In this document: positions 1,377 to 64,000 of the stretch, piece by piece
Layout of the letters: every line of letters begins with the position of its first letter
Position numbering within the stretch: the stretch's first letter is position 1
From: Thermoplasmata archaeon
Lineage (GTDB): Archaea > Thermoplasmatota > Thermoplasmata > RBG-16-68-12 > JAJISG01
Length of the DNA stretch: 64,000 bases
Reading direction: 5' to 3'
Assembly: GCA_046759985.1 (NCBI GenBank)
Contig: JBHIDH010000003.1
Location: forward strand, 2,245-66,244
The notes under the pieces: generated by a model
Databases searched by the model: none
What the model was told of the DNA's origin: nothing
Seen by the model: the letters and a program-made list of their open reading frames with translations, nothing else
Program-made: the position numbers and the translations under genes

Positions 1377-1814
1377 GTGATTGCTATGGAAGGGCAGACC
1401 ACGCCCGCGCCCCCGACGCCCCCGGCTCCCCCGCCTCAGGAGCCTGCCCAGCCGGAAGTCCCCGGCGGCCGCCTCGTTCAGGGACCGGTTCTCAGGGCGG
1501 GTATCATCGTCATCGGCGTCCTGCTGCTCAGCGCCGCTGTTCTCCTGCGGGTTCTCGGGCTCGTCGACCCGGCATCGTTCCCGTCCGCCGAGGGCCACAC
1601 GAACTTCGTGCGTATCGTGGTCAGTATGTCGGCCATTCTCGTGGACGTGGCGATGTTCCTCCTCCTGATGTTCGCCCTCTTGGTCGGCGTGCAGCGGACG
1701 GATCTGAGCGACTCGACCCGGAAGGCGTTCATGGCCTTCGCCCTCATCCTGTTCATCTCCTGGTTCCTGGTGGTTCTCTTCCAGAGCCGGGCCGTTCCCT
1801 TCTTCTTCCCCTGA
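1377..1814 (+). CDS. Hypothetical integral membrane protein (Pro-rich N-terminus, 3-4 hydrophobic helices)
   Basis: 145-aa ORF with clear hydrophobic segments (IIVIGVLLLSAAVLL, ILVDVAMFLLLMFALLV, MAFALILFISWFLVVLF). GTG 1377 sits symmetrically to the tfb start around the TATA palindrome; ATG 1386 is an alternative start. Confidence 0.5.
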   Translation: MIAMEGQTTPAPPTPPAPPPQEPAQPEVPGGRLVQGPVLRAGIIVIGVLLLSAAVLLRVLGLVDPASFPSAEGHTNFVRIVVSMSAILVDVAMFLLLMFALLVGVQRTDLSDSTRKAFMAFALILFISWFLVVLFQSRAVPFFFP

Positions 1815-5117: not shown

Positions 5118-5708
5118 GTGCGTGCGGAGGGGGCGAGGTCGGCGGGGGAACGGTTCCCCGCACCGGGGCCGCCCCCGAACTCGCAGGCGGCGAGGAGAAC
5201 GCCCTCTCCCAGAGAACTGTACGAACGGGTCAAGGACCTCCTGTCGTGGGAGGCATTCGGGCAGCGTCTCCGCGAGGAGGCGGAGGCTTGGGGGGGTCTC
5301 CTAGACGAGGAGGCCGCGGCGCTCCTCGTGGTCGACGCCCTCGGTCGGAACGAGGTCGCCTTTGGCCGGGTGGCCGACCTGTACGAAGGGGGAGAGGCCC
5401 TTCTCCGAGTGCAGGTGGACCAGGTGGGGCCGGTCCAGGACTTTGAGCGACGGGACGGGGGCGAGGGACGGGTCGTGAAGCTCAACGTCTCCGATGCCTC
5501 GGGCACCGTCCGCCTCGTCCTCCGGGACGAGGAGGTGGAGCTGGTCACGTCGGGGACCGCGCAGGAAGGGGGGAGGATCAAGGTCGTGGACGGGTACGTC
5601 CGGCGGGGACGGCAGGGTCTGGAAGTGGGCACGGGCAAGTGGGGCGTGGTCCTGCCCGGGGATCCGGAGGAAGCGTCGGAAGCCGTCGGTTCTCAGTTCC
5701 GGTTTTGA
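5118..5708 (+). CDS. OB-fold nucleic-acid-binding protein (RPA-related)
   Basis: 196 aa. The C-terminal half (GRVVKLNVSDASGTVRLVLRDEEVELV...GRIKVVDGYVRRG) has the RPA-type OB-fold pattern. GTG 5118 lies about 28 nt downstream of a CCTTAAGG box at 5089-5096. Confidence 0.55.
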   Translation: MRAEGARSAGERFPAPGPPPNSQAARRTPSPRELYERVKDLLSWEAFGQRLREEAEAWGGLLDEEAAALLVVDALGRNEVAFGRVADLYEGGEALLRVQVDQVGPVQDFERRDGGEGRVVKLNVSDASGTVRLVLRDEEVELVTSGTAQEGGRIKVVDGYVRRGRQGLEVGTGKWGVVLPGDPEEASEAVGSQFRF

Positions 5709-6428: not shown

Positions 6429-7112
6429 TTGGCTGAGGACCAGACCTCCCTCGAGGGCTTCGTCGTCCTCCGCCTCGAGGACTTGGAGGATGCCGTGGAG
6501 AGAGTGCTCAAGAAGCACGGGATCCTCAGCCTCGCCAAGAAACGGGTCTCGTGGAACCGCAAGTATTGGGGCGACGAGAACTGGCTGGAGTGCCGGGCCC
6601 ACGCCCTCCGCCTCGTCCGGCGAAACCTCATCGTCGCGTGGGCTGACCTGGATCAGGACCCCTACTTCCACCTGCCCAAGGAGGACGGGGGCGCGGGCTG
6701 GACTCAATCCAATCAGTTGCACCGGGCCATCGACCAGCACTTCCTCCCCAACAGACCCAAGGCCCACGACAGCCCCCAGCTCCGTGCCTTCCAGACCGGC
6801 AAGAGGATGTGCCGCTACCTGACCCTGGACAAGTGGGGGCATTGCGCCGCGCGGGAGGCTTTGCGGGTTGAGGGGCGGGAGAGTCCCGCCACCCTCCGAC
6901 GTCTTCGCGAGAGGTTCGGTTGGACGGAGCCCTGCGAGTTGGATCGCCGACGTTACGACCGCCCCGAGAGGGTTGAAGAGGACCTTCAACTCCCAGTAAT
7001 CGTAAGCGATTCTGGGGAGGAAGTCCCCCCCAGTGACGAGCTAAGCGAGGAGGAAAAGGCCATCGTGGAGGCCGCGATACGTGAATCCAGTAATGAAGGT
7101 GAGGGGAGTTAG
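6429..7112 (+). CDS. Hypothetical protein (227 aa, acidic C-terminus), no family recognised
   Basis: The ORF has protein-like composition and C/G-rich third codon positions. The TTG start is uncertain. The stop codon lies in the loop of hairpin 7103-7121. Confidence 0.45.
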   Translation: MAEDQTSLEGFVVLRLEDLEDAVERVLKKHGILSLAKKRVSWNRKYWGDENWLECRAHALRLVRRNLIVAWADLDQDPYFHLPKEDGGAGWTQSNQLHRAIDQHFLPNRPKAHDSPQLRAFQTGKRMCRYLTLDKWGHCAAREALRVEGRESPATLRRLRERFGWTEPCELDRRRYDRPERVEEDLQLPVIVSDSGEEVPPSDELSEEEKAIVEAAIRESSNEGEGS

Positions 7113-36832: not shown

Positions 36833-37246
36833 TCAGGCGACCTCCATCCCGCTCGACTGCTTCCCCCCGCCCTTCAGCTTGATCATGGGCAGCGGAATGG
36901 GGGGCGGGAGTCGCAGGTCGCGTGCGATGACGACGGCCTCCTGGATGCAGAAGGTCATGATGGCCGTGTGAATCTGGCTAGCCACGTCTTCTGGCAGGTT
37001 GCCCGTCTTCTCCCAGACCTGGGGGAGGGTCGCGTCGCCCTCGAACTGTAGGCTTCCCTCGATCTGGAGGGCTCCGACCCCGCCGTAGTTCACGGTGAAG
37101 CGGAAATCCACGCCCGCGGTCTCCTCCAGGGGGTACACCCGCGTGACCGTGCTGTTGTGGGCGACCCGCACGTTCTGGAAACGCTCTCCCATCTTCGCGA
37201 ACCGCTTTCCCTCCAGGGAGGTTAGCTCCATGCTTTTGACGGGCAT
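36833..37246 (-). CDS. Hypothetical protein (137 aa); weak SecB-like resemblance
   Basis: ATG start. The end of the protein (CIQEAVVIARDLRLPPPIPLPMIKL) recalls the SecB-like chaperone C-terminal pattern. That is from memory only and unverified. Confidence 0.45.
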   Translation of the reverse strand: MPVKSMELTSLEGKRFAKMGERFQNVRVAHNSTVTRVYPLEETAGVDFRFTVNYGGVGALQIEGSLQFEGDATLPQVWEKTGNLPEDVASQIHTAIMTFCIQEAVVIARDLRLPPPIPLPMIKLKGGGKQSSGMEVA

Positions 37247-43550: not shown

Positions 43551-44048
43551 CTACACACTCTCTCCGGGATGCCTTTCGTGCTTGACGACCACGTCGTAGA
43601 AGAAGGCCGCCACGATCCCGCCGAGCAGGTCGACGTAGACGTCCTGCATCGCGTTCCAGGGGCTGTTGTAGAAAGCGATCAGGTCCAACCGGATCACGAT
43701 CTCTTCGAAGGCTTCCCAGAGGATCCCGACGGTCAACGCGAATCCGATGGGGATGCCCCATGACCATTGCCTCTTCTCGCCCAGGTTGAGGTTGAGGAGG
43801 AGGGCGACGACGGCGATGGCGCTGACGGAGTGCGTGTACACGTCGATCCGAAGATCCGGGTGGGGTGGGTTCCCGTAGAGGTCGAACTGAATCGCCAGGA
43901 AATGGAACGCAGGGGCCGCCGCTGCCAGGGTGAGGGAGATGACGACCCAGAGCATGTTCGTGTCCAGGAACCTGTTGAAAATGACCCGTCCGCGGTGCAC
44001 GTGAATTCCTAACGACGACGGCTCTGTCAATAAGAGTTTCGAAGACAC
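43551..44048 (-). CDS. Hypothetical membrane protein (4-5 TM helices)
   Basis: 165-aa ORF with a GTG start (ATG 43955 is an alternative). Hydrophobic helices are present, and the end DVYVDLLGGIVAAFFY faintly resembles VanZ. It lies in a lower-GC island. Confidence 0.45.
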   Translation of the reverse strand: MSSKLLLTEPSSLGIHVHRGRVIFNRFLDTNMLWVVISLTLAAAAPAFHFLAIQFDLYGNPPHPDLRIDVYTHSVSAIAVVALLLNLNLGEKRQWSWGIPIGFALTVGILWEAFEEIVIRLDLIAFYNSPWNAMQDVYVDLLGGIVAAFFYDVVVKHERHPGESV

Positions 44049-51404: not shown

Positions 51405-52286
51405 TCAGCGGGGAGGGGCAGGGGGTTCCTCGGCCAACGCGAAGGCGGAGAGGGTCAGTGACTCCTTCTCCCTTCGCGCGGGAATCTCCCGCAGGAGGGC
51501 GAGAACCTCGGGTCGTGTGTCCCGGACCGTGGGACGGAACTTGCGCGCCGCGACGACGTCCCGTGGGTCGACGGTACATCTGACCACGTCCTCCTGGAAG
51601 TCCTTAGCCCGACCCAGCTCCTCCCCCCGGGGGTCCACGGCCTGTGTCCCGCCCTGGAACACCATGTTGAGCTCCGTCCCCACCAGGTTGGCGTAAAGGA
51701 AGAAGCAGGTGTTCTCGATGGCCCGGGCCGGGATGACCTTGTCGAAGAACCCCTTGCTCGTGGCGGGGGCGGCCGAGAGGCAGGCCAGGATCTCGGCCCC
51801 CTGGAGGGCCAGGCCTTTGGGGACCTCGGGGAAGAAGGTGTCGTAGCAGATGAGGAGGCCGATCTTTCCGAGGTCAGTGCGCACCACCTTCAACTCGCTC
51901 CCCCGTCGGAAGTACTGGAGTTCCTCGAAGGGGCCAAAGTTGGCGGGATACAGCTTGCGATACGCCACCGCCTCCCCGTCAGGGAACACGAAGACAGAGC
52001 TGTTGTAGCGAAGCCCCGTGTCGGCGTCTCGCTCCGGCATCCCGAAGACGATATGGGCGTTGGCCTCCTGCGCGAGCTGGGACACCCGCTTCACGGAGGG
52101 CCCGTCCAACGGCTCGGCCAGCTTGGGGAACAGGTCTCGGGCCATGTAGCCCGACAGGTAGAGCTCCCCGAACAGGTAGAGCTGGGCCGGATGCTTGCGG
52201 ACGAAGGTCGCCATCTTCCTGAGGTTGGCTGCCTTGTCGCCCACCTTCGGTTCCGCCTGTACAAGGGCCGTCTCAAAGGCCGTCAT
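51405..52286 (-). CDS. Carbon-nitrogen hydrolase (nitrilase superfamily)
   Basis: The Glu-Lys-Cys triad contexts FGELYLSGY, YRKLY and GLLICYD are present. Confidence 0.88.
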   Translation of the reverse strand: MTAFETALVQAEPKVGDKAANLRKMATFVRKHPAQLYLFGELYLSGYMARDLFPKLAEPLDGPSVKRVSQLAQEANAHIVFGMPERDADTGLRYNSSVFVFPDGEAVAYRKLYPANFGPFEELQYFRRGSELKVVRTDLGKIGLLICYDTFFPEVPKGLALQGAEILACLSAAPATSKGFFDKVIPARAIENTCFFLYANLVGTELNMVFQGGTQAVDPRGEELGRAKDFQEDVVRCTVDPRDVVAARKFRPTVRDTRPEVLALLREIPARREKESLTLSAFALAEEPPAPPR

Positions 52287-52437
52287 GCCTGCCGCCTCGC
52301 GCCGCCTCCAAGGGAGTGCGTGGCCTCCTCAGGAGGGCGCGAACCCATAAACCCTTCCTCCCCCGACCGTGTCCGTGGCCCGTCGGTCAAGGGAGACCGG
52401 AACGCTTAGATAGCGGTCCCAGGCCTCCTTCGGCCCG

Positions 52438-53487
52438 ATGAAGATCGAGATCGTGGCCTTTGGCCCCGAGACGGCGTCCCGGGAGGAATGGGCGAGGTAC
52501 CATGCCTACCGCCGGCGACGCCACGGCGAGACGGACCCCGAGGATCCCATCATTGATGACCCGTCCCTGGAGGCCCTATGGAAGCGGGCGGGCCCCCAGT
52601 TCGTGACCTCGCGGTTCGTCGTCGTGAAGGCCGGCGAGCCCGGGACGCAGATCGGACACATCGAGTTCAACGTGTTCCGGGAAGGCACCCCCAGCTACGA
52701 GGGAAACGAACACCTGGCGCAGGCGAACCTCGCCCTGCTTCGACCCTACCGGCGACAGGGCCACGGCAGGGAACTCCTGGCGAAGGTGGCCCAGCTCGCC
52801 AATGCGCACGGCAAATCGCGGCTCATCGGTTCCTCCGACGAGGAGGACGGGAAGGCCTTCGCCCGGGCCCTGGGCGCCGAGATTGCCCTCGAGGGGGTGG
52901 AGAACCGCCTTCAGCTCGAAGCGGTGGACTGGGAGATGGTCGAGGCGTGGGCTGCCGAAGGACCGACGCGCTCTCCCGGGTCGACGATTCACTGGTTCAC
53001 CAACCACATCGACGACGCCCTCCTGCAGGCCTACTGCACGTTCTACACGGAGGTCTTCAATCAGCAACCCTTCGGGCTCCTGGACGTGAAGGACCTGGTC
53101 TTCGATTCCGAGACGTTCCGCGACCGGGAGGCCCGCGTCGCCGACGTCGGCGGTTCCTGGATGACCGGGATGACCACGGAGGGTGGGGGGGACATCTCGG
53201 GCATGACGGAGATGTTCTACCTCCCGGACCGGAAGACGATGATCGGACAGGGTCTGACCGGGGTGAAGGAGGGGTGCCGGGGCCGTGGCCTCGGGAAGTG
53301 GCTGAAGGCGGCCATGCTCCTCCGGGTGCGAGACGAGTTCCCCCAGGTGCGTGTCGTCCAGACGGGGAACGCGACGACGAACGAGGCCATGCTCTCCATC
53401 AACCGGAGGTTGGGCTTCGAGAGGTACCGGGAAGGGGAGAACCTCCAGATCCCCCTGGAGGCGCTGGAAGAGTACCTGGCAGCCTAG
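52438..53487 (+). CDS. Tandem-GNAT N-acetyltransferase family protein (paralog A)
   Basis: 349 aa. It has two acetyltransferase-like halves, with motif A sequences RRQGHGRELLAKV and RGRGLGKWLKAAM. It is a close paralog of 54350-55429. Confidence 0.75.
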   Translation: MKIEIVAFGPETASREEWARYHAYRRRRHGETDPEDPIIDDPSLEALWKRAGPQFVTSRFVVVKAGEPGTQIGHIEFNVFREGTPSYEGNEHLAQANLALLRPYRRQGHGRELLAKVAQLANAHGKSRLIGSSDEEDGKAFARALGAEIALEGVENRLQLEAVDWEMVEAWAAEGPTRSPGSTIHWFTNHIDDALLQAYCTFYTEVFNQQPFGLLDVKDLVFDSETFRDREARVADVGGSWMTGMTTEGGGDISGMTEMFYLPDRKTMIGQGLTGVKEGCRGRGLGKWLKAAMLLRVRDEFPQVRVVQTGNATTNEAMLSINRRLGFERYREGENLQIPLEALEEYLAA

Positions 53488-53674
53488 GGCTCCGTGGTCC
53501 GGCAAGAGGGCCACGGCGGCGAGGCGGCCGAGGAGACGGAGAGGCGTACCGTGCGCCCGTCCCCCGCGGAGGTGAAGGAGGCAAAGGGCGCCCCTGGACT
53601 CCCAGGACCCGTTCTCCCTCCTGATAATCGCCGGCAAAGGCCTAAGGCGGCCCCCTCGTGACTTCGCCCCCACT

Positions 53675-54241
53675 TTGATTCGGGATCTCCAGACGGTCCG
53701 CCCCCAGAGCACTCGCACGAGACTGAAGCTCTGCCTCGCCGGCGAATTCGCAGTCGGGAAGACCTCCCTCATCCGCCGCTTCGTCTCCGGGGAATACAGC
53801 GACCGTTACATCGCCACGTGGGGCACGCACGTCACCTCGAAGGAGTTCGACGTGCAAGTGGGTCCGGAGCACAAGGAAGTGGGCGTGCTCCTGAACCTGT
53901 GGGATATCATGGGGTCCAAGGGCCTGCGGGATTTGCGTCGGGAGACCTACTTTCGCGGGGTCCAGGGCATCCTGGCGGTCTGTGACGCCACCCGTCCCGA
54001 GACCCTCCCTCCCCTGGAGGGATGGCGCCAGTCCATCTTCCGAGTGGCTGGCAGTGTGCCCACCTACGTGCTGGCCAACAAGGCAGACCAAGAGCGGGCC
54101 ATCACCCCGGAGGACCTCGGGCGCTTCTGCGAGGGGTGGGGCTGCCCGTTCCTCTACACGAGCGCGAAGTCGGGCGAGTCGGTGGAGGAGGCCTTCGGGG
54201 GACTCACGCGTCTCGTGCTCCGGTTCGTGCTTCCTCGTTGA
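53675..54241 (+). CDS. Rab/Ras-like small GTPase (paralog 1)
   Basis: G1 GEFAVGKTS, G3 WDIMGSKG, G4 NKAD, G5 TSAKSGESVEEAF. The TTG start is uncertain, with an in-frame CTG at about 53720 as an alternative. A TGATAATC box lies about 50 nt upstream. Confidence 0.8.
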   Translation: MIRDLQTVRPQSTRTRLKLCLAGEFAVGKTSLIRRFVSGEYSDRYIATWGTHVTSKEFDVQVGPEHKEVGVLLNLWDIMGSKGLRDLRRETYFRGVQGILAVCDATRPETLPPLEGWRQSIFRVAGSVPTYVLANKADQERAITPEDLGRFCEGWGCPFLYTSAKSGESVEEAFGGLTRLVLRFVLPR

Positions 54242-54349
54242 AGTGGCACATGGGAGCCGCGAGGGCATCACCCTTGGGGGTCCTCGCCCCGCCCTCGCGA
54301 ACCTTCAGGACCCGTTTCCAGTGGCAAAGCCTTAGGTACGGAGCTGGCC

Positions 54350-55429
54350 GTGCGGAGACGAATGGGCGTGCATCTCCTCCCCTTCGATCCCCGTGAGGCC
54401 TCCCCGAGCCAATGGGCCAGGTACCACGTATTCCGTCGGCTGCGCCACGAGGAGACGGATCCCGACGACCCTCTCCTGGGGGATCAAGCGGTGGAGAGCC
54501 TCATGAGGAGGCATGACCCCGAGTGGGAGTCCCTCTACTTCGCCGCCACGCGAGAGGACGCGCCTGAAGAGGTCGTGGGATGGCTCGACCTCGGCCTGAC
54601 GCGAGAAGGAGCCCTCGCGCACCAAACCAACGCCCATATGGCCTGGGTCGAACTCGCCGTCCTCGCCCCTCATCGCAGACAGGGGATTGGACGGACCCTG
54701 CTGGCCAAGGCGGCCGAGGTCGCCAGGGAGCGCGACCGTTCCTTGCTGATGGGGGGTACCGACGAAGAGGACGGGAAGCGTTTCATCGAGGCCGTGGACG
54801 CCGAGGTAGCCCTTCGTTGGCGGGAGAGCCGGCTGGTCCTGGACCAAGTCGACTGGGGAATGGTCGAGGAGTGGGCGACGGAGGGTCCTCGACGCTCCCC
54901 CGAGGCCACCCTCCGATTCGTGGGCAGCTACGTGGACGCCGCGCTGATCGAGGAATACTGCGATGTGGTGACGGAGGTGGGGAATCAGGAGCCCCGCGAG
55001 GACCTGGACCTCGGGGACGAGTTTCTCACTCCGGAGATTCTCCGGGAGCGGGTGGACAACTTCGTGGAGGCGGGCGGGACCCTTCTCCGGTACCTGACCC
55101 AGCCGGAAGAGGGGAAGATTAGTGGGTATACGGTCATGGGCTACTTTCCCGAGGAGAGGACGATGATTCACCAGTACGGGACCGGCGTACGGGAGATCTG
55201 GCGAGGGCACGGCCTGGGCAGGTGGCTCAAGGCGGCCATGCTCCTTCGGGTTCGCCGGGAGTTCCCCCAGGTCAAGGTCGTCGTGACCGGGAACGCTACC
55301 TCCAACGCAGCGATGCTCTCCATCAACCAGCGGCTGGGGTTCAAACCCCACAAGGAGGGGGTCGAGGCGCAGATTCGCCGGGAGGACGCGGAGGGCTATC
55401 TCGCGGCGAATGCTCCCGAGGGGATTTGA
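54350..55429 (+). CDS. Tandem-GNAT N-acetyltransferase family protein (paralog B)
   Basis: 359 aa and collinear with paralog A (WARYH..RR.RH.ETDP.DP; HRRQGIGRTLLAKA; RGHGLGRWLKAAMLLRVRREFPQVKVV.TGNAT.N.AMLSIN.RLGF). The last 19 nt are antisense to tRNA-Glu. Confidence 0.75.
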   Translation: MRRRMGVHLLPFDPREASPSQWARYHVFRRLRHEETDPDDPLLGDQAVESLMRRHDPEWESLYFAATREDAPEEVVGWLDLGLTREGALAHQTNAHMAWVELAVLAPHRRQGIGRTLLAKAAEVARERDRSLLMGGTDEEDGKRFIEAVDAEVALRWRESRLVLDQVDWGMVEEWATEGPRRSPEATLRFVGSYVDAALIEEYCDVVTEVGNQEPREDLDLGDEFLTPEILRERVDNFVEAGGTLLRYLTQPEEGKISGYTVMGYFPEERTMIHQYGTGVREIWRGHGLGRWLKAAMLLRVRREFPQVKVVVTGNATSNAAMLSINQRLGFKPHKEGVEAQIRREDAEGYLAANAPEGI

Positions 55430-55505
55430 ACCCCTGTCAGGGGCTTTCTCCGGCTCTGCCAGCCACGAGAGGCCCCGATGCTTGACCGGACTACACCACG
55501 GGAGC
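55411..55505 (-). tRNA. tRNA-Glu (CTC) with a 20-nt intron at 37/38
   Basis: Reverse-strand hand fold: acceptor GCTCCCG/CGGGAGC, D arm GTGT-AGTCCGGTCAA-GCAT, anticodon stem GGGGC/GCCCC, loop CTCTCG|intron TGGCTGGCAGAGCCGGAGAA (55446-55465)|A, 4-nt variable loop, T arm AGGGG-TTCAAAT-CCCCT, discriminator A. The mature length is 75 nt. Confidence 0.85.
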
Positions 55506-55548
55506 TAGCGGGCGGATACGGCCGACGTCTTATGGGCTTTTCCCGGCC

Positions 55549-57033
55549 TTACTCCGGTTTAACCAGGCCGAAGGCGTCCTTCATGGCCTCGCCGGTCTCG
55601 TCCAAGAAGAGATGCTTCACCTCGGTGTACTCGTAGAGGCCCCAGATTCCGAGCTCCCGACCGATTCCCGACTGCTTGTATCCCCCGTGGGGGGCCGCAC
55701 AGCTCAGAATGTGGTGCTGGTTGACCCAAACGGTCCCCGCGCGAAGGGCCCGCGCGACCGCCTGGGCTTCCTCCAGGTCGCGGGACCACACCGAGGCAGC
55801 CAACCCGTAGGGTGTCGCGTTGGCCATGTCCACCGCCTCCTCGGGGGTCTCGTACGTCAGCACCGAGAGGACCGGGCCGAAGATTTCCTCCCGCGCGATG
55901 GTCATCTCCGGCGTGACGCCATCGAAGATGGCCGGCTCCAGGTAGAACCCCTGGGGGAAGGCGGCCGGCCTTCGGCCCCCGCATAGGAGCTCGGCCCCCT
56001 CCTCCTTCCCCCTCGCCACGTAGGACTCCACCCGCTCGCGCTGGGACGCGGAGATCAAGGGGCCCATGTCCGTTTCCCAGGAGAGCGTGGGCCCCAGGCG
56101 AAGGGATTCCGTCTGCTCTCGTAAGCGCCGCAGAAACCCCTCCCGCTGGGACGTGGGCATCAGGAGGCGTGTAGCCGCGAGACACACCTGGCCCTGATGG
56201 AGGAAGGCCCCGAAGAGGGCGCCCCGAAGGGCCTCCTCCGGGTCGGCATCCGGCAGGATGATCATGGGGGACTTCCCCCCCAGTTCCAGGGTCACCCTCT
56301 TGACCGTATCGGAGGCCAGCTGCATCACGGTCCGGCCCACCTCGGTGGAGCCTGTGAAGGCGACGCTGTCCACGGCAGGGTGGGCGGCGAGTTCCTCCCC
56401 CACCTCCCGCCCCGAGCCCGTGACGACATTCAGGACGCCTGGGGGGAGGCCTGCTCTCGCTGCCAGCCGGGCGTACTCCAGGGCTGTCAAGGGGGTGTAG
56501 CTAGCGGGCTTCAGCACCACGGTGTTCCCTGCGGCGAGGGCGGGGGCCACTTTCCAGACGGCCATGAGGAGAGGGTAGTTCCACGGGATGATGCCGGCAC
56601 AGACACCGATGGGTTCCCGCAGCACGCGGGTCGTGATGCCGATGTCGGGGAGTTCCACCTCCTGGTCCTCCAGCCGGGAGGCCAGTCGCCCGAAGTGACC
56701 CGTATGCTCGATGGCCATGGGCAGGTCCGCGATGGAGGCCTGCCGAATCGGCTTCCCGGCGTTCCGCGCCTCCAACTCGGCAAGGCGGTCCGCCTCGGTC
56801 TGAAGGAGTTCCGCGAGGCGGGTCAGGATGCGCCCCCGCTTCGCGGGAGGCGTCCGGGGCCAGGGCCCTCCATCGAAGGCCTCCCTCGCCGCGTCGATGG
56901 CAGCCCGGGCATCTTCCCTCGTGGCCCGGGGCACGGAGGCCAACACGGTCTCGTCGGACGGATCCAGGATTCCTTGGGTCGCCCCCGACGAGCTCCCGAC
57001 CCACTCCCCGTCGATGAGCATCTTGTACTCCAC
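55549..57033 (-). CDS. NAD(P)+-dependent aldehyde dehydrogenase
   Basis: 494 aa. LIDGEWV near the N-terminus, ELGGKSP and the catalytic Cys region (QGQVCLAATR) are ALDH hallmarks. The start is GTG 57033 or ATG 57021. Confidence 0.92.
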   Translation of the reverse strand: MEYKMLIDGEWVGSSSGATQGILDPSDETVLASVPRATREDARAAIDAAREAFDGGPWPRTPPAKRGRILTRLAELLQTEADRLAELEARNAGKPIRQASIADLPMAIEHTGHFGRLASRLEDQEVELPDIGITTRVLREPIGVCAGIIPWNYPLLMAVWKVAPALAAGNTVVLKPASYTPLTALEYARLAARAGLPPGVLNVVTGSGREVGEELAAHPAVDSVAFTGSTEVGRTVMQLASDTVKRVTLELGGKSPMIILPDADPEEALRGALFGAFLHQGQVCLAATRLLMPTSQREGFLRRLREQTESLRLGPTLSWETDMGPLISASQRERVESYVARGKEEGAELLCGGRRPAAFPQGFYLEPAIFDGVTPEMTIAREEIFGPVLSVLTYETPEEAVDMANATPYGLAASVWSRDLEEAQAVARALRAGTVWVNQHHILSCAAPHGGYKQSGIGRELGIWGLYEYTEVKHLFLDETGEAMKDAFGLVKPE

Positions 57034-60603: not shown

Positions 60604-61356
60604 CTAGGCCTTCAGGCCCTCCCCCCAGACCTGCTGCTTGACCCTCTGAAATCCCATCCCCTCGGTCAGCCTGAGGGAGGGGAGGTTGTCCTCGAAGACC
60701 TCGGCGGCCGCCACCTTCCCCCGGGCGAAGACCTTCTCGCAGGTGGCGGTCGTCACGGTCTTCGCGTACCCCCGGCCCCGGTAGCCCTCCTTCACGTGGA
60801 GGAACCCCAACATCACGACGCGATCGGTCTCGAAGTGGGTCATGTCCCACGCGACCAGCTCGCCGTCGACCTCGATGCCGGACGTGATGCCCTCCTCGAT
60901 ACGGCGCCGCACGTACTCGGACGCATCCCGTTCGGGCGCCCAGAGGGCTGCGATCATGGGCGCCTCGGAAACCGCAACGGGCCGGGTCTCTACCATGCGA
61001 GAGGGGCGGAGGTCTTCGGGTCGCATCCGGTAGAGCCAGACCGGCGCCCGAAAGGTCGTCTGCAAGGCGCGCCTGACGAGTGGGATGAGCTCGACATCGA
61101 CGGAGGTCAGGCGATACGTGCCACGCGGAAGGAGGGCGAGGAGGTCCTCCAACCTGTCGGGCGGCTCGGCCGCGGCCGCCAACCTCCGTGTCTCGGGGCG
61201 AACCGCCAGGACGGCGCGGGGTCGCCGGCCGTCGTCGACCCAGACTCGCACCTGGTCTGCTGGGGTGGAGAGGAGGTGGATGACGTGGGCATAGCGGACC
61301 GGCTCGCCTTCGAGCCAGGCACGCAGCCTGCCGAGGACCGCCTCGGTCGGTTCCAC
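60604..61356 (-). CDS. GNAT family N-acetyltransferase
   Basis: The C-terminal domain carries motif A: LGFLHVKEGYRGRGYAKTVTTA. The GTG start lies 21 nt from a TATA box. Confidence 0.75.
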   Translation of the reverse strand: MEPTEAVLGRLRAWLEGEPVRYAHVIHLLSTPADQVRVWVDDGRRPRAVLAVRPETRRLAAAAEPPDRLEDLLALLPRGTYRLTSVDVELIPLVRRALQTTFRAPVWLYRMRPEDLRPSRMVETRPVAVSEAPMIAALWAPERDASEYVRRRIEEGITSGIEVDGELVAWDMTHFETDRVVMLGFLHVKEGYRGRGYAKTVTTATCEKVFARGKVAAAEVFEDNLPSLRLTEGMGFQRVKQQVWGEGLKA

Positions 61357-62756: not shown

Positions 62757-63407
62757 TTAAACCATTGCGTCGGCGTCCCGAATCCGCGCGAGAATCGCGT
62801 CGGCCGCCTCGGCGGGATGGGGGCTCTGGGTGATGCTCCGCCCGACGATGAGGTGGTCGGCCCCGTGTCGCAGGGCCTCGACGGGGGACCCTCCCTGGGC
62901 GCCGACGCCGGGCGCGAGGATCAGGAGGGATCCCACGAGTTCCCGCAGCTCCCGGAGGACCGCGGGGCGCGTGGCCCCCGCGATGATGCCGGCGGCGCCC
63001 ACCTCCACGGCCAGCCGGGCCAGGTCCTGCGCCAGCGGAAGGACGAATCGGTCCGCCCCGGGATGGCTCATGGCGGTCACCACAAAGACGTCGCCCTGGG
63101 CCGCCTCCAGGCACGCCCGCAGGGAGTCTTTCCCGGGAAACCCGTGGGCGATCACCCCCGAGGCTCCGTGGTCGAAGACCTGCTCCACGATGAGGCGGTT
63201 CGTGGCGGGGATGTCCGCCACCTTGAAGTCGCACAGAACATCGCCGAAGCGACCCAACGTGTCCACGATGCCCAGTCCCGTGGCGAGGACCAGCGGGTAG
63301 TTGACCTTGAACGCGTCGCAGCGGGAGGCCGTGGCCTTGGCGATTTCCACCGCTCGCTTTGCCTCCAGGACATCCAGGGCGATGATCAGCCGTTTCTCCG
63401 TTCGCAT
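62757..63407 (-). CDS. pyrF: Orotidine 5'-phosphate decarboxylase
   Basis: I trimmed to the ATG giving MRTEKRLIIALDV...FKVNYPL...CDFKVADIPATN. The SD GGGAGGCGGC lies directly upstream. Confidence 0.92.
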   Translation of the reverse strand: MRTEKRLIIALDVLEAKRAVEIAKATASRCDAFKVNYPLVLATGLGIVDTLGRFGDVLCDFKVADIPATNRLIVEQVFDHGASGVIAHGFPGKDSLRACLEAAQGDVFVVTAMSHPGADRFVLPLAQDLARLAVEVGAAGIIAGATRPAVLRELRELVGSLLILAPGVGAQGGSPVEALRHGADHLIVGRSITQSPHPAEAADAILARIRDADAMV

Positions 63408-63494: not shown

Positions 63495-64000
63495 ATGGTC
63501 AGCGAGTACCAGATGAAGACCAAGGTGTGCCTGGTGGGGGAGGCCGCCGTGGGCAAGACGAGCCTGATCCGCCGTTTCGTCCAAGACGCCTTCGACGACG
63601 CCTACGTCACGACCCTCGGGGCGAAGGTCTCCAAGAAGGAGATCCAGGTGGAGGTCCCCGAGAGGGACCTGCTCATCCAGATGGACATGACCATCTGGGA
63701 CATCATGGGGGAGAAGGGCGTCCGTGACCTGCTCCGCGAGGCCTTCTTCAGCGGGGCCAAGGGCATCCTGGCCGTGTGCGACCTCACCCGGTACTCGAGC
63801 CTGAAGGAGCTGGATGACTGGGTCCAGTCCGTCTTCCAAGTGGTGGGAGAGATCGCCGTCGTCTACGCCGTGAACAAGGCGGACCTCCAGGACGAGATCA
63901 TGCTCCTCTACGGGGAGAAGGACATCGAGATGTCCGCCGAGGCCTTCGAGGCCCCCTACTTCTTCACCTCGGCCAAGACGGGGGAGAACGTCCAGATGGT
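63495..64000 (+). CDS. Rab/Ras-like small GTPase (paralog 2; 3' end beyond the window)
   Basis: Absent from the track because there is no stop in the window. Hand translation from ATG 63495 (SD AAGGAGGGG upstream) gives MVSEYQMKTKVCLVGEAAVGKTSLIRRFVQDAFDDAYVTTLGAKVSKKEIQV...MTIWDIMGEKGVRDL...AVNKADL...FFTSAKTGENVQM. Confidence 0.8.
   Translation, partial: MVSEYQMKTKVCLVGEAAVGKTSLIRRFVQDAFDDAYVTTLGAKVSKKEIQVEVPERDLLIQMDMTIWDIMGEKGVRDLLREAFFSGAKGILAVCDLTRYSSLKELDDWVQSVFQVVGEIAVVYAVNKADLQDEIMLLYGEKDIEMSAEAFEAPYFFTSAKTGENVQM

Follow-up and report, generated by a model that had tools for sequence, protein, structure and literature searches.

The DNA considered here is a 64,000-nucleotide stretch of a Thermoplasmata archaeon genome (contig JBHIDH010000003.1, positions 2,245 to 66,244), hereafter the window, which has a guanine plus cytosine (GC) content of approximately 67% and an archaeal gene set including aIF5B, NDK and the ribosomal proteins L24e, S28e and L7Ae. 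A preliminary description of it had placed a small GTPase gene (GTPase1) between two genes for paralogous double-GNAT proteins (GNAT_A and GNAT_B), and had proposed a functional association between GTPase and acetyltransferase. The three open reading frames (ORFs) are present as it reported, all on the same strand; lengths are in amino acids (aa):

52438-53487, + strand: GNAT_A, a 349-aa tandem (double) GNAT acetyltransferase
53675-54241, + strand: GTPase1, a 188-aa Ras-fold small GTPase with a TTG start
54350-55429, + strand: GNAT_B, a tandem GNAT of 359 aa from the GTG at 54350, or 355 aa from the ATG at 54362

The middle gene had been described as encoding a Rab/Ras-like GTPase with recognisable G1, G4 and G5 motifs, and we found that all five motifs are present: GEFAVGKTS (G1), T48 (G2), WDIMGS (G3, containing DIMG), NKAD (G4) and TSAKSG (G5), with GEFAVGKT, T48, DIMG, NKAD and SAK near-invariant across the family of homologues discussed below. 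GTPase1 scored 93 bits with the Pfam Ras model (cutoff 21.6), 70 bits with Roc and 33 bits with Arf and, as a single G domain within the 160-200 aa range typical of the group, it belongs to the small GTPases that make up the Ras superfamily. The AlphaFold model of GTPase1 has a canonical Ras fold (predicted local distance difference test score 88.7), and its 50 best structural neighbours include Rab35, Rab32, Rab1, Rab7, Rab27, Sec4, H-, K- and N-Ras and Ran, with template modelling (TM) scores of 0.8-0.93 to the nearest structures (Rab35, 32, 1 and 7, Ras and Ran); neither MglA nor Arf is among those 50. The start codon is TTG or GTG in the orthologues.

The absence of the catalytic Gln from switch II, also noted in the preliminary description, was borne out by alignment with Rab35, which places Ser81 of GTPase1 at the Gln position (WDIMGS against WDTAGQ). 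The same alignment places Phe25 at the position of Gly12 in Ras, where Rabs have Ser. GTPase1 therefore lacks both elements of the canonical Ras/Rab catalytic site, the Gln that follows DxxG and a small residue where Ras has Gly12, and its GTP hydrolysis is probably either dependent on a partner or very slow. Phe25 and Ser81 are fixed in six GTPase1 orthologues, and the ratio of non-synonymous to synonymous substitution rates (dN/dS) of GTPase1 against five orthologues is 0.10-0.20, which rules out a decaying relic. As the region upstream of the gene is also conserved (see below), we conclude from these sequence comparisons that GTPase1 encodes a functional nucleotide switch.

We then considered the class to which this GTPase belongs. 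RabF1-F5 motifs serve to recognise Rab proteins, and GTPase1 mostly differs from Rab35 at these positions, reading WGTHV for IGVDF, LLNLW for KLQIW and GLRDLR for RFRTIT; its C-terminal tail (…LVLRFVLPR) contains no Cys. By a definition that requires RabF motifs and prenylatable cysteines, drawn in part from PMC4915359, GTPase1 is not a bona fide Rab. It does resemble the archaeal Rab-like proteins, including those of Asgard archaea, in that its best matches in sequence and structure include Rab35, Rab1, Rab7 and a Thorarchaeota Rab (PDB 7ezb) and in that C-terminal prenylation cysteines are missing from GTPase1 and from other archaeal Rab-like proteins alike. It differs from them in its poorly kept RabF positions and its missing catalytic Gln, and Ras and Ran structures match it about as well as Rab structures do. 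Single Rab-like proteins have been reported in a Thermoplasmatales archaeon and in Aciduliprofundum (Surkont & Pereira-Leal 2016; PMC4915359).

Prokaryotic members of the superfamily were split by Wuichet & Sogaard-Andersen into MglA and Rup (2015; PMC4316618). The preliminary description had allowed that the GTPase might fall within MglA, and this is not so: MglA proteins, usually coupled to MglB, have a G3 of TVPGQ or GTPGQ, with Gln and without Asp (PMC4316618), whereas the WDIMGS of GTPase1 has the Asp and not the Gln. Rup proteins have eukaryote-like G1-G5 motifs including the G3 Asp in a single domain of <240 aa (PMC4316618), as does GTPase1, which by motif and length alone fits the Rup/Ras-like side of the division. 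The likeness extends to Group 1 Rup, which also lacks the G3 Gln and for which a GTPase-activating protein (GAP) supplying the Gln in trans was proposed, and to Group 2 Rup, in which duplication is likewise extensive and a genome may hold as many as six copies (PMC4316618). However, Group 1 is bacterial and Group 2 is confined to a few Crenarchaeota, whereas the GTPase1 family is centred on Thermoplasmata, and none of 121 Rup sequences was coupled to MglB/Roadblock (PMC4316618), whereas a longin protein adjoins approximately one-fifth of the loci described here.

GTPase1 has at least 2,141 homologues, many of them named 'Rab family GTPase [Thermoplasmata archaeon]', and the closest all come from Thermoplasmata metagenome-assembled genomes (MAGs). 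When one genome per species was scanned, more than 557 family loci were found; almost all belong to Thermoplasmata, and a genome often has several of them. At least two copies are present at 26 of 95 loci, the arrays comprising as many as seven genes set 75-118 bp apart. Across the family, DxxG is followed by Q, E, S, T, A or N, so that the missing Gln is a family trait and not a peculiarity of GTPase1. Judged by sequence, GTPase1 is an ordinary member of an uncharacterised, paralogue-rich, Thermoplasmata-centred Ras-like ('Rup-type') family. Arrays of three to seven GTPase genes on one strand lie at L067:625-6599, L006:8366-10804 and L017:10001-12417, and also in L005, L010, L012 and L018 (here and below, L numbers denote contigs of relatives, with L001 identical to the window); the L067 array is exceptional in having spacers of about 350 bp. 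These arrays in Thermoplasmata MAGs recall the expansion seen in Asgard archaea.

To characterise the surroundings of the family, all ORFs within 4 kb of its GTPase genes were clustered. The dominant neighbour cluster consists of large proteins (median approximately 900 aa, maximum approximately 1,670 aa). In 32 of 35 cases their genes lie on the same strand as the GTPase gene, the usual distance between the two being 58-430 bp. Their common layout starts with a hydrophobic segment at the N-terminus, followed by a long stretch with many N-x-S/T sequons, a single transmembrane helix and a conserved cytoplasmic tail of about 120 aa; among 23 tail proteins, 17 have the helix directly before the tail. 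A tail profile matched at 20 of 96 GTPase-anchored loci compared with one of 80 GNAT-anchored controls (Fisher p = 3e-5). Tail proteins are encoded at L002:1192-4248 and L086:909-5903, in L024, L027-L030, L035, L037, L045, L056 and L061, and at L051:4387-5208.

Two tail members scored 27.9 and 26.2 bits with Pfam Fuz_longin_1 (cutoff 26.1), a model of the first longin domain of FUZ, MON1 and HPS1, and six others were matched by Robl_LC7 below threshold. The AlphaFold model of the tail has the element order bb-a-bbb-a-a, and all of its 50 best Foldseek matches in the PDB are longin or Roadblock proteins (E-values of 1e-3 to 2e-2), among them Sec22b, the small subunits of AP and COPI complexes, MglB, Mon1-Ccz1, GATOR1 and an Asgard Roadblock protein. 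Searches of PDB sequences with single tail sequences or with the profile returned only noise and a 0.52 match to TRAPPC1. The tail thus has the features of a longin domain of the Mon1/Fuz type, albeit at marginal scores.

One of the two proteins above the Fuz_longin_1 cutoff, that at L051:4387-5208, is a fusion of a receiver domain (Response_reg) to the longin domain, from which it follows that the domain can be attached to different sensor modules. The tail family is large: the number of representative clusters in an exhaustive profile search was 6,419 with E ≤ 1e-3 and 928 with E ≤ 1e-30, where a word-indexed homologue search with the same profile had found 18 proteins. The domain is mostly C-terminal in proteins of 900-2,400 aa, and all named members among the matches listed are 'hypothetical'. 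In some representatives the domain is present two or three times.

The longin-adjacent members include close relatives of GTPase1. A longin-tail membrane protein directly precedes the GTPase in L002, whose GTPase is an 86% identical orthologue, and directly follows it in L086, whose partial GTPase is 81% identical. In a neighbour-joining tree calculated without support values, the GTPase1 clade holds these two members and nests among longin-adjacent lineages. Retention of the Gln is also rarer in the longin-adjacent GTPases (four of 29) than in the others (42 of 98; p = 0.004, uncorrected for phylogeny).

In the window itself, the absence of a Roadblock or longin partner, as asserted in the preliminary description, held at the level examined: the tail profile had no match among six-frame ORFs of the 64 kb, 20 small ORFs had no Roadblock or longin match in Pfam, and a tblastn search of the window with the large neighbour proteins had no match. 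If GTPase1 has a partner of this kind, it must be encoded outside the 64 kb or have been lost. In the Asgard strain MK-D1, small-GTPase genes are reportedly not, as a rule, in operons with Roadblock or longin genes (PMC10933270). We found no description of a GTPase-longin association in Thermoplasmata in the searchable literature.

A potential explanation that would not need to invoke a longin protein or a GAP is that GTPase1 is a constitutively GTP-bound pseudo-switch of the Rnd/RhoH kind, regulated by its expression or by binding. The Phe and Ser at the Gly12 and Gln61 positions, both fixed under purifying selection, would suit such a protein, as would the lack of a regulator in the window, and the strongly conserved region upstream of GTPase1 could carry transcriptional control. 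However, the two close relatives in L002 and L086 directly adjoin longin-tail membrane proteins, and loss of the Gln is commonest in the longin-adjacent paralogues, a pattern that fits catalysis assisted by a partner. The Gln is likewise missing from Rap and Group 1 Rup, which are nevertheless thought to cycle by means of residues supplied by a GAP (PMC4316618). We therefore regard the pseudo-switch as unlikely, though it is the best placed of the alternatives.

The flanking proteins are the tandem GNAT paralogues that the preliminary description had taken them to be. GNAT_A and GNAT_B are 48% identical over 349 residues (E = 1e-114), and GNAT models in Pfam match both halves of each; Acetyltransf_1 scored 45 bits with the N-terminal half of GNAT_A, and 53 bits was also recorded (cutoff 20.7), the C-terminal half of GNAT_A being matched more weakly than its N-terminal half. 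The acetyl-CoA motif R-x-x-G-x-G is kept in both halves across 36 family members, as R109-x-x-G112-x-G114 and R285-G-x-G288-x-G290. For GNAT_B, the ATG at 54362 is more likely to be the start codon than the GTG at 54350, because the orthologues and the gene call on L001 begin there. GNAT_A orthologues are 75-82% identical in L084, L174 and L175, and 67% identical in L108, which has no GTPase; the GNAT_B family comprises about 120 clusters, named 'GNAT family N-acetyltransferase [Thermoplasmata archaeon]', and is widespread in Thermoplasmata.

The closest solved relative, found with a family profile, is 'ORF14' (PDB 2wpw; E = 2e-22 over two stretches), which like MshD has two GNAT folds in one polypeptide of approximately 340-350 aa. 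The likeness to MshD also includes weak model matches and distant GNAT relatives labelled mycothiol synthase. The flanking GNATs differ in keeping the acetyl-CoA motif in both halves, and with scores of 21.9 and 30.5 bits against the NCBIfam model TIGR03448 (cutoff 163.1) they are not MshD. The pair, set among genes of amino-acid and aldehyde metabolism, are probably independent small-molecule N-acyltransferases. Elsewhere in the tandem family, at L123:909-3059 and L126:10001-12151, a single uninterrupted frame of over 717 codons spans two full double-GNAT units and apparently encodes a protein in which four GNATs are fused; stop codons split these two units in L116.

The recurrence of the GNAT-GTPase adjacency was surveyed from both sides, at 80 loci with GTPases ≤51% identical to GTPase1, over a range of 10 kb, and at 80 double-GNAT loci with 619 kb of flanking sequence. 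No double-GNAT gene lay within 10 kb at any of the 80 more distant GTPase loci. Just one of the 80 GNAT loci had a GTPase nearby, 9 kb away, and it belonged to another clade, which has pyrF as a neighbour. The adjacency is limited to a shallow clade in which the GTPase is 79-93% identical to GTPase1, and the layouts of its contigs are as follows (percentages are identities of the GTPase):

L174, 93%: GNAT_A-PALP-GTPase-GNAT_B
L084 and L085, 85%: GNAT_A-PALP-GTPase-GNAT_B
L002, 86%: GNAT_A-PALP-1,018-aa membrane protein-GTPase-GNAT_B
L176, 81%: PALP-GTPase-GNAT_B
L175, 81%: GNAT_A-(52-codon PALP relic)-GTPase-GNAT_B-Aldedh
L086, 81%, partial: GTPase-1,664-aa membrane protein

It can be seen that GNAT_A is usually separated from the GTPase by PALP and once by PALP together with the 1,018-aa membrane protein. 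GTPases at 54-68% identity neighbour another GTPase, a TPR protein or unknown proteins. The proposed association therefore finds no support as a cluster conserved across distant genomes; the arrangement recurs in the close clade and not beyond it, which comes near to the adjacency being unique to this genome, the outcome that the preliminary description had said would make it likely to be fortuitous.

The history of the sandwich can be read from its relatives. In L108, a more distant contig that is syntenic with the window through the CN-hydrolase gene, a GNAT_A-like gene (67%), a 96-aa membrane ORF and a GNAT_B-like gene (56%) occur with no GTPase, and GNAT pairs are directly adjacent in five further loci. 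The 96-aa ORF (L108:9363-9653) has two predicted hydrophobic segments and may be a gene or a remnant. In the window, the 187-bp spacer between GNAT_A and GTPase1 ends with the context of the PALP stop codon, TCCTGATAAT, followed by the conserved region upstream of the GTPase; in loci that bear PALP, the TGA of TCCTGATAAT is the PALP stop codon. A general partnership between PALP and the GNATs is ruled out, there being no PALP match in 80 GNAT loci outside the close clade. We propose that the tandem GNAT pair would be an older duplicate unit, that a PALP-(receptor)-GTPase segment would have come between the two copies in the ancestor of the shallow clade, and that the lineage of the window would then have lost PALP to leave the direct GNAT-GTPase-GNAT sandwich. 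Since insertion and later deletion within an older GNAT pair can account for the sandwich, it provides no evidence for a GTPase-acetyltransferase pathway, and the adjacency of the three genes is probably fortuitous.

The upstream regions were read directly and compared across orthologues. The following features, all on the + strand, precede the three genes:

52403-52413, + strand: promoter-like box CGCTTAGATAG, 25-35 nt 5' of the GNAT_A start codon
53610-53674, + strand: GTPase upstream region (…TCTCCCTCCTGATAATCGCCGGCAAAGGCCTAAGGCG…), comprising the PALP 3' end/stop relic and a promoter-like box
54326-54338, + strand: promoter-like box AAAGCCTTAGGTA, 24-36 nt 5' of the GNAT_B ATG at 54362

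The box of GTPase1, AAAGGCCTAAGG, contains CCTAAGG and lies about 30 nt before the TTG start, so that an AT-richer box lies 24-36 nt ahead of the start codon in all three genes. Like boxes (AAgccTTAAgg, cgcTTATATA) stand 25-37 nt before many genes that lead transcription units in the window, and none was found ahead of window genes that abut their upstream neighbour. Archaeal promoters have a TATA box approximately 26 nt before the transcript start, and leaders are short or absent. Because the boxes fit this architecture, we infer three separate promoters, and GNAT_A, GTPase1 and GNAT_B would accordingly be separate transcription units; in our reading they adjoin one another with no functional coupling. 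A scan of 52200-55700 for bacterial promoters and terminators found no sigma-70 site and one terminator at chance level, and is uninformative for an archaeon.

The region upstream of GTPase1 is nearly invariant in five orthologous loci, whatever gene precedes it, and these 65 bp or so before the start codon (…CCTGATAATCGCCGGCAAAGGCCTAAGG…) are more conserved than the flanking coding sequence. This degree of conservation suggests that 53610-53674 may hold a regulator-binding site besides the promoter. The GNAT_B box has an equivalent, AAAG(C/G)YTTAGRTA, after the stop codon of the GTPase gene in each of the five orthologous loci.

These observations bear on two explanations that would couple GTPase1 to its neighbours. 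In the first, GTPase1 and the flanking GNATs, especially GNAT_B, form a clade-specific module that arose after loss of the receptor, the GTPase gating the GNAT or the GNAT acetylating the GTPase. The GTPase and GNAT_B do remain adjacent, on the same strand and with spacers of 47-120 bp, on all seven contigs of the close clade, at synonymous divergences (dS) of up to about 1.1 and with repeated changes on the upstream side, and no strong terminator lies between them. Nevertheless, the adjacency is missing from all 80 of the more distant GTPase loci and from 79 of the 80 GNAT loci, the GNAT pair is older than the GTPase insertion (L108 and the tandem pairs), and the GTPase and GNAT_B each have their own conserved promoter-like box. 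Moreover, L002 and L086 pair close relatives of GTPase1 with longin-tail membrane proteins instead, and synteny at so shallow a depth is expected even where genes are not functionally coupled. We consider such a module improbable, and a variant in which GTPase1 was rewired to GNAT_B within the close clade marginally more so.

The second explanation is that the CN-hydrolase, GNAT_A, PALP, GTPase, GNAT_B, aldehyde dehydrogenase and alcohol dehydrogenase genes make up one metabolic cluster, with the GTPase as an accessory or maturation factor of one of the enzymes. The neighbours are indeed all small-molecule enzymes, and the synteny of CN-hydrolase, GNAT pair and aldehyde dehydrogenase extends to relatives. 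On the other hand, the enzymes occur together without the GTPase in L108, and the genes are oriented in both directions, with promoter-like boxes of their own. To our knowledge, the GTPase classes that mature metalloenzymes do not include the Ras fold that GTPase1 has. This reading is already largely refuted and is the least probable of those considered.

The reading that we prefer, to which we would give a probability of roughly 60%, is that GTPase1 is a Ras-like switch from a longin-linked family and that its position between the GNAT genes reflects a recent local rearrangement with no coupling between them. In the mechanism that we envisage, the sensor part of the partner protein would change the state of its longin domain, which would in turn either promote nucleotide exchange on the GTPase or stimulate its hydrolytic activity, by analogy with the longin/Roadblock precedents of Rab7, Rag and MglA; residues supplied or positioned by the partner would take the place of the missing Gln. 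A broader proposal is that the Thermoplasmata Ras-like GTPases, GTPase1 and its paralogue GTPase2 (see below) included, are switches at the output of a so far undescribed system of transmembrane signalling in archaea, in which large glycosylated surface receptors or receiver domains signal through a cytoplasmic longin domain of the Mon1/Fuz type that loads or unloads the adjacent GTPase, and in which many of the GTPases could dispense with the Gln as the partner completes the active site. This proposal is tentative, and we judge the odds to be somewhat against it.

Several points weigh against the preferred reading. The longin call depends on marginal Pfam scores, Foldseek E-values no better than 1e-3 and a model made from 15 sequences; the tail protein is adjacent in only about one-fifth of GTPase loci; and no longin-domain protein is encoded in the 64-kb window. 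The neighbour-joining tree lacks support values, and the correlation with Gln loss is not corrected for phylogeny. There is no clear terminator between GTPase1 and GNAT_B, so that co-transcription or read-through is possible, and the adjacency of these two genes on all seven close-clade contigs has lasted through synonymous divergence of up to approximately 1.1; weak selection for the pair would give the same retention while the upstream side was rearranged several times.

The sensor-longin-GTPase loci have parallels among known regulator systems. The closest functional analogy is the actinobacterial conservon (sensor kinase CvnA, Roadblock protein CvnB, CvnC and MglA-type GTPase CvnD; PMC4316618), which also combines a membrane sensor, a protein of the Roadblock superfold and a small GTPase. 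Here, in contrast, the sensor is something other than a histidine kinase and carries the longin domain in the same polypeptide, the GTPase is of the Ras type and the setting is archaeal. MglA-MglB, a bacterial polarity switch with its Roadblock GAP, likewise links a small-GTPase gene to a regulator of the Roadblock/longin superfold, MglB being among the best structural matches of the tail; the partner here differs in having the longin order of elements and in being joined to a membrane receptor or to a receiver domain instead of standing alone. The eukaryotic regulators Mon1-Ccz1 (the guanine nucleotide exchange factor of Rab7/Ypt7; PMC5216073), GATOR1 and the FLCN-type GAPs also pair with Rab/Ras-like GTPases, and chains of Mon1-Ccz1 and GATOR1 are matched by the tail. 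Unlike a soluble heterodimer with several longin domains, the tail comprises just one, sited where a prokaryotic surface protein ends in the cytoplasm; it is linked to the GTPase by gene neighbourhood only and is absent from the window.

If the broader proposal holds, the pairing of longin domains with Rab-like GTPases, a hallmark of eukaryotic membrane traffic, would also be a widespread gene-linked module outside Asgard archaea. Were the pairing functional, it would offer a tractable prokaryotic model for longin regulation of Ras/Rab-type GTPases and would bear on whether longin domains and such GTPases were paired before the Asgard-eukaryote lineage arose. In any case, Thermoplasmata, which lie outside the Asgard archaea, have numerous small Ras-like GTPases, in arrays of up to seven and with a freely varying 'catalytic' position. 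The GNAT-GTPase sandwich itself matters little; the longin link is the lead worth following.

The preliminary description had also referred to a second GTPase, which corresponds to a paralogue at the end of the window:

62757-63407, − strand: pyrF-like (orotidine monophosphate decarboxylase) gene, divergent from GTPase2
63495-64000, + strand: GTPase2, a paralogue of the same family, 44% identical to GTPase1, with WDIMGEKG, cut by the window end

GTPase2 has Glu at the Gln position (WDIMGEKG), and in the neighbour-joining tree, which carries no support values, it falls in a clade separate from that of GTPase1, the members of which share the pyrF neighbour. The pyrF/GTPase layout was found in at least 11 Thermoplasmata loci, and in several loci of this clade it extends to pyrF / GTPase-a GTPase-b longin-tail protein, so the longin partner of GTPase2 may lie just beyond the end of the window.

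A third GNAT protein is encoded in the window at 60604-61356 (− strand); it is a single-domain protein of 250 aa with matches to Acetyltransf_1 and FR47, and its architecture is unrelated to that of the tandem pair. Five ORFs with a good codon-position GC signature (5118-5708, 6429-7112, 1377-1814, 36833-37246 and 43551-44048) had no Pfam match at E ≤ 0.01. One of them, 1377-1814 (+ strand), is divergent from 396-1316 (− strand), and the 60-bp intergenic region between the two contains a perfect 16-bp palindrome, CAATATTTAAATATTG, at 1339-1354, which is probably a shared bidirectional TATA or operator element.

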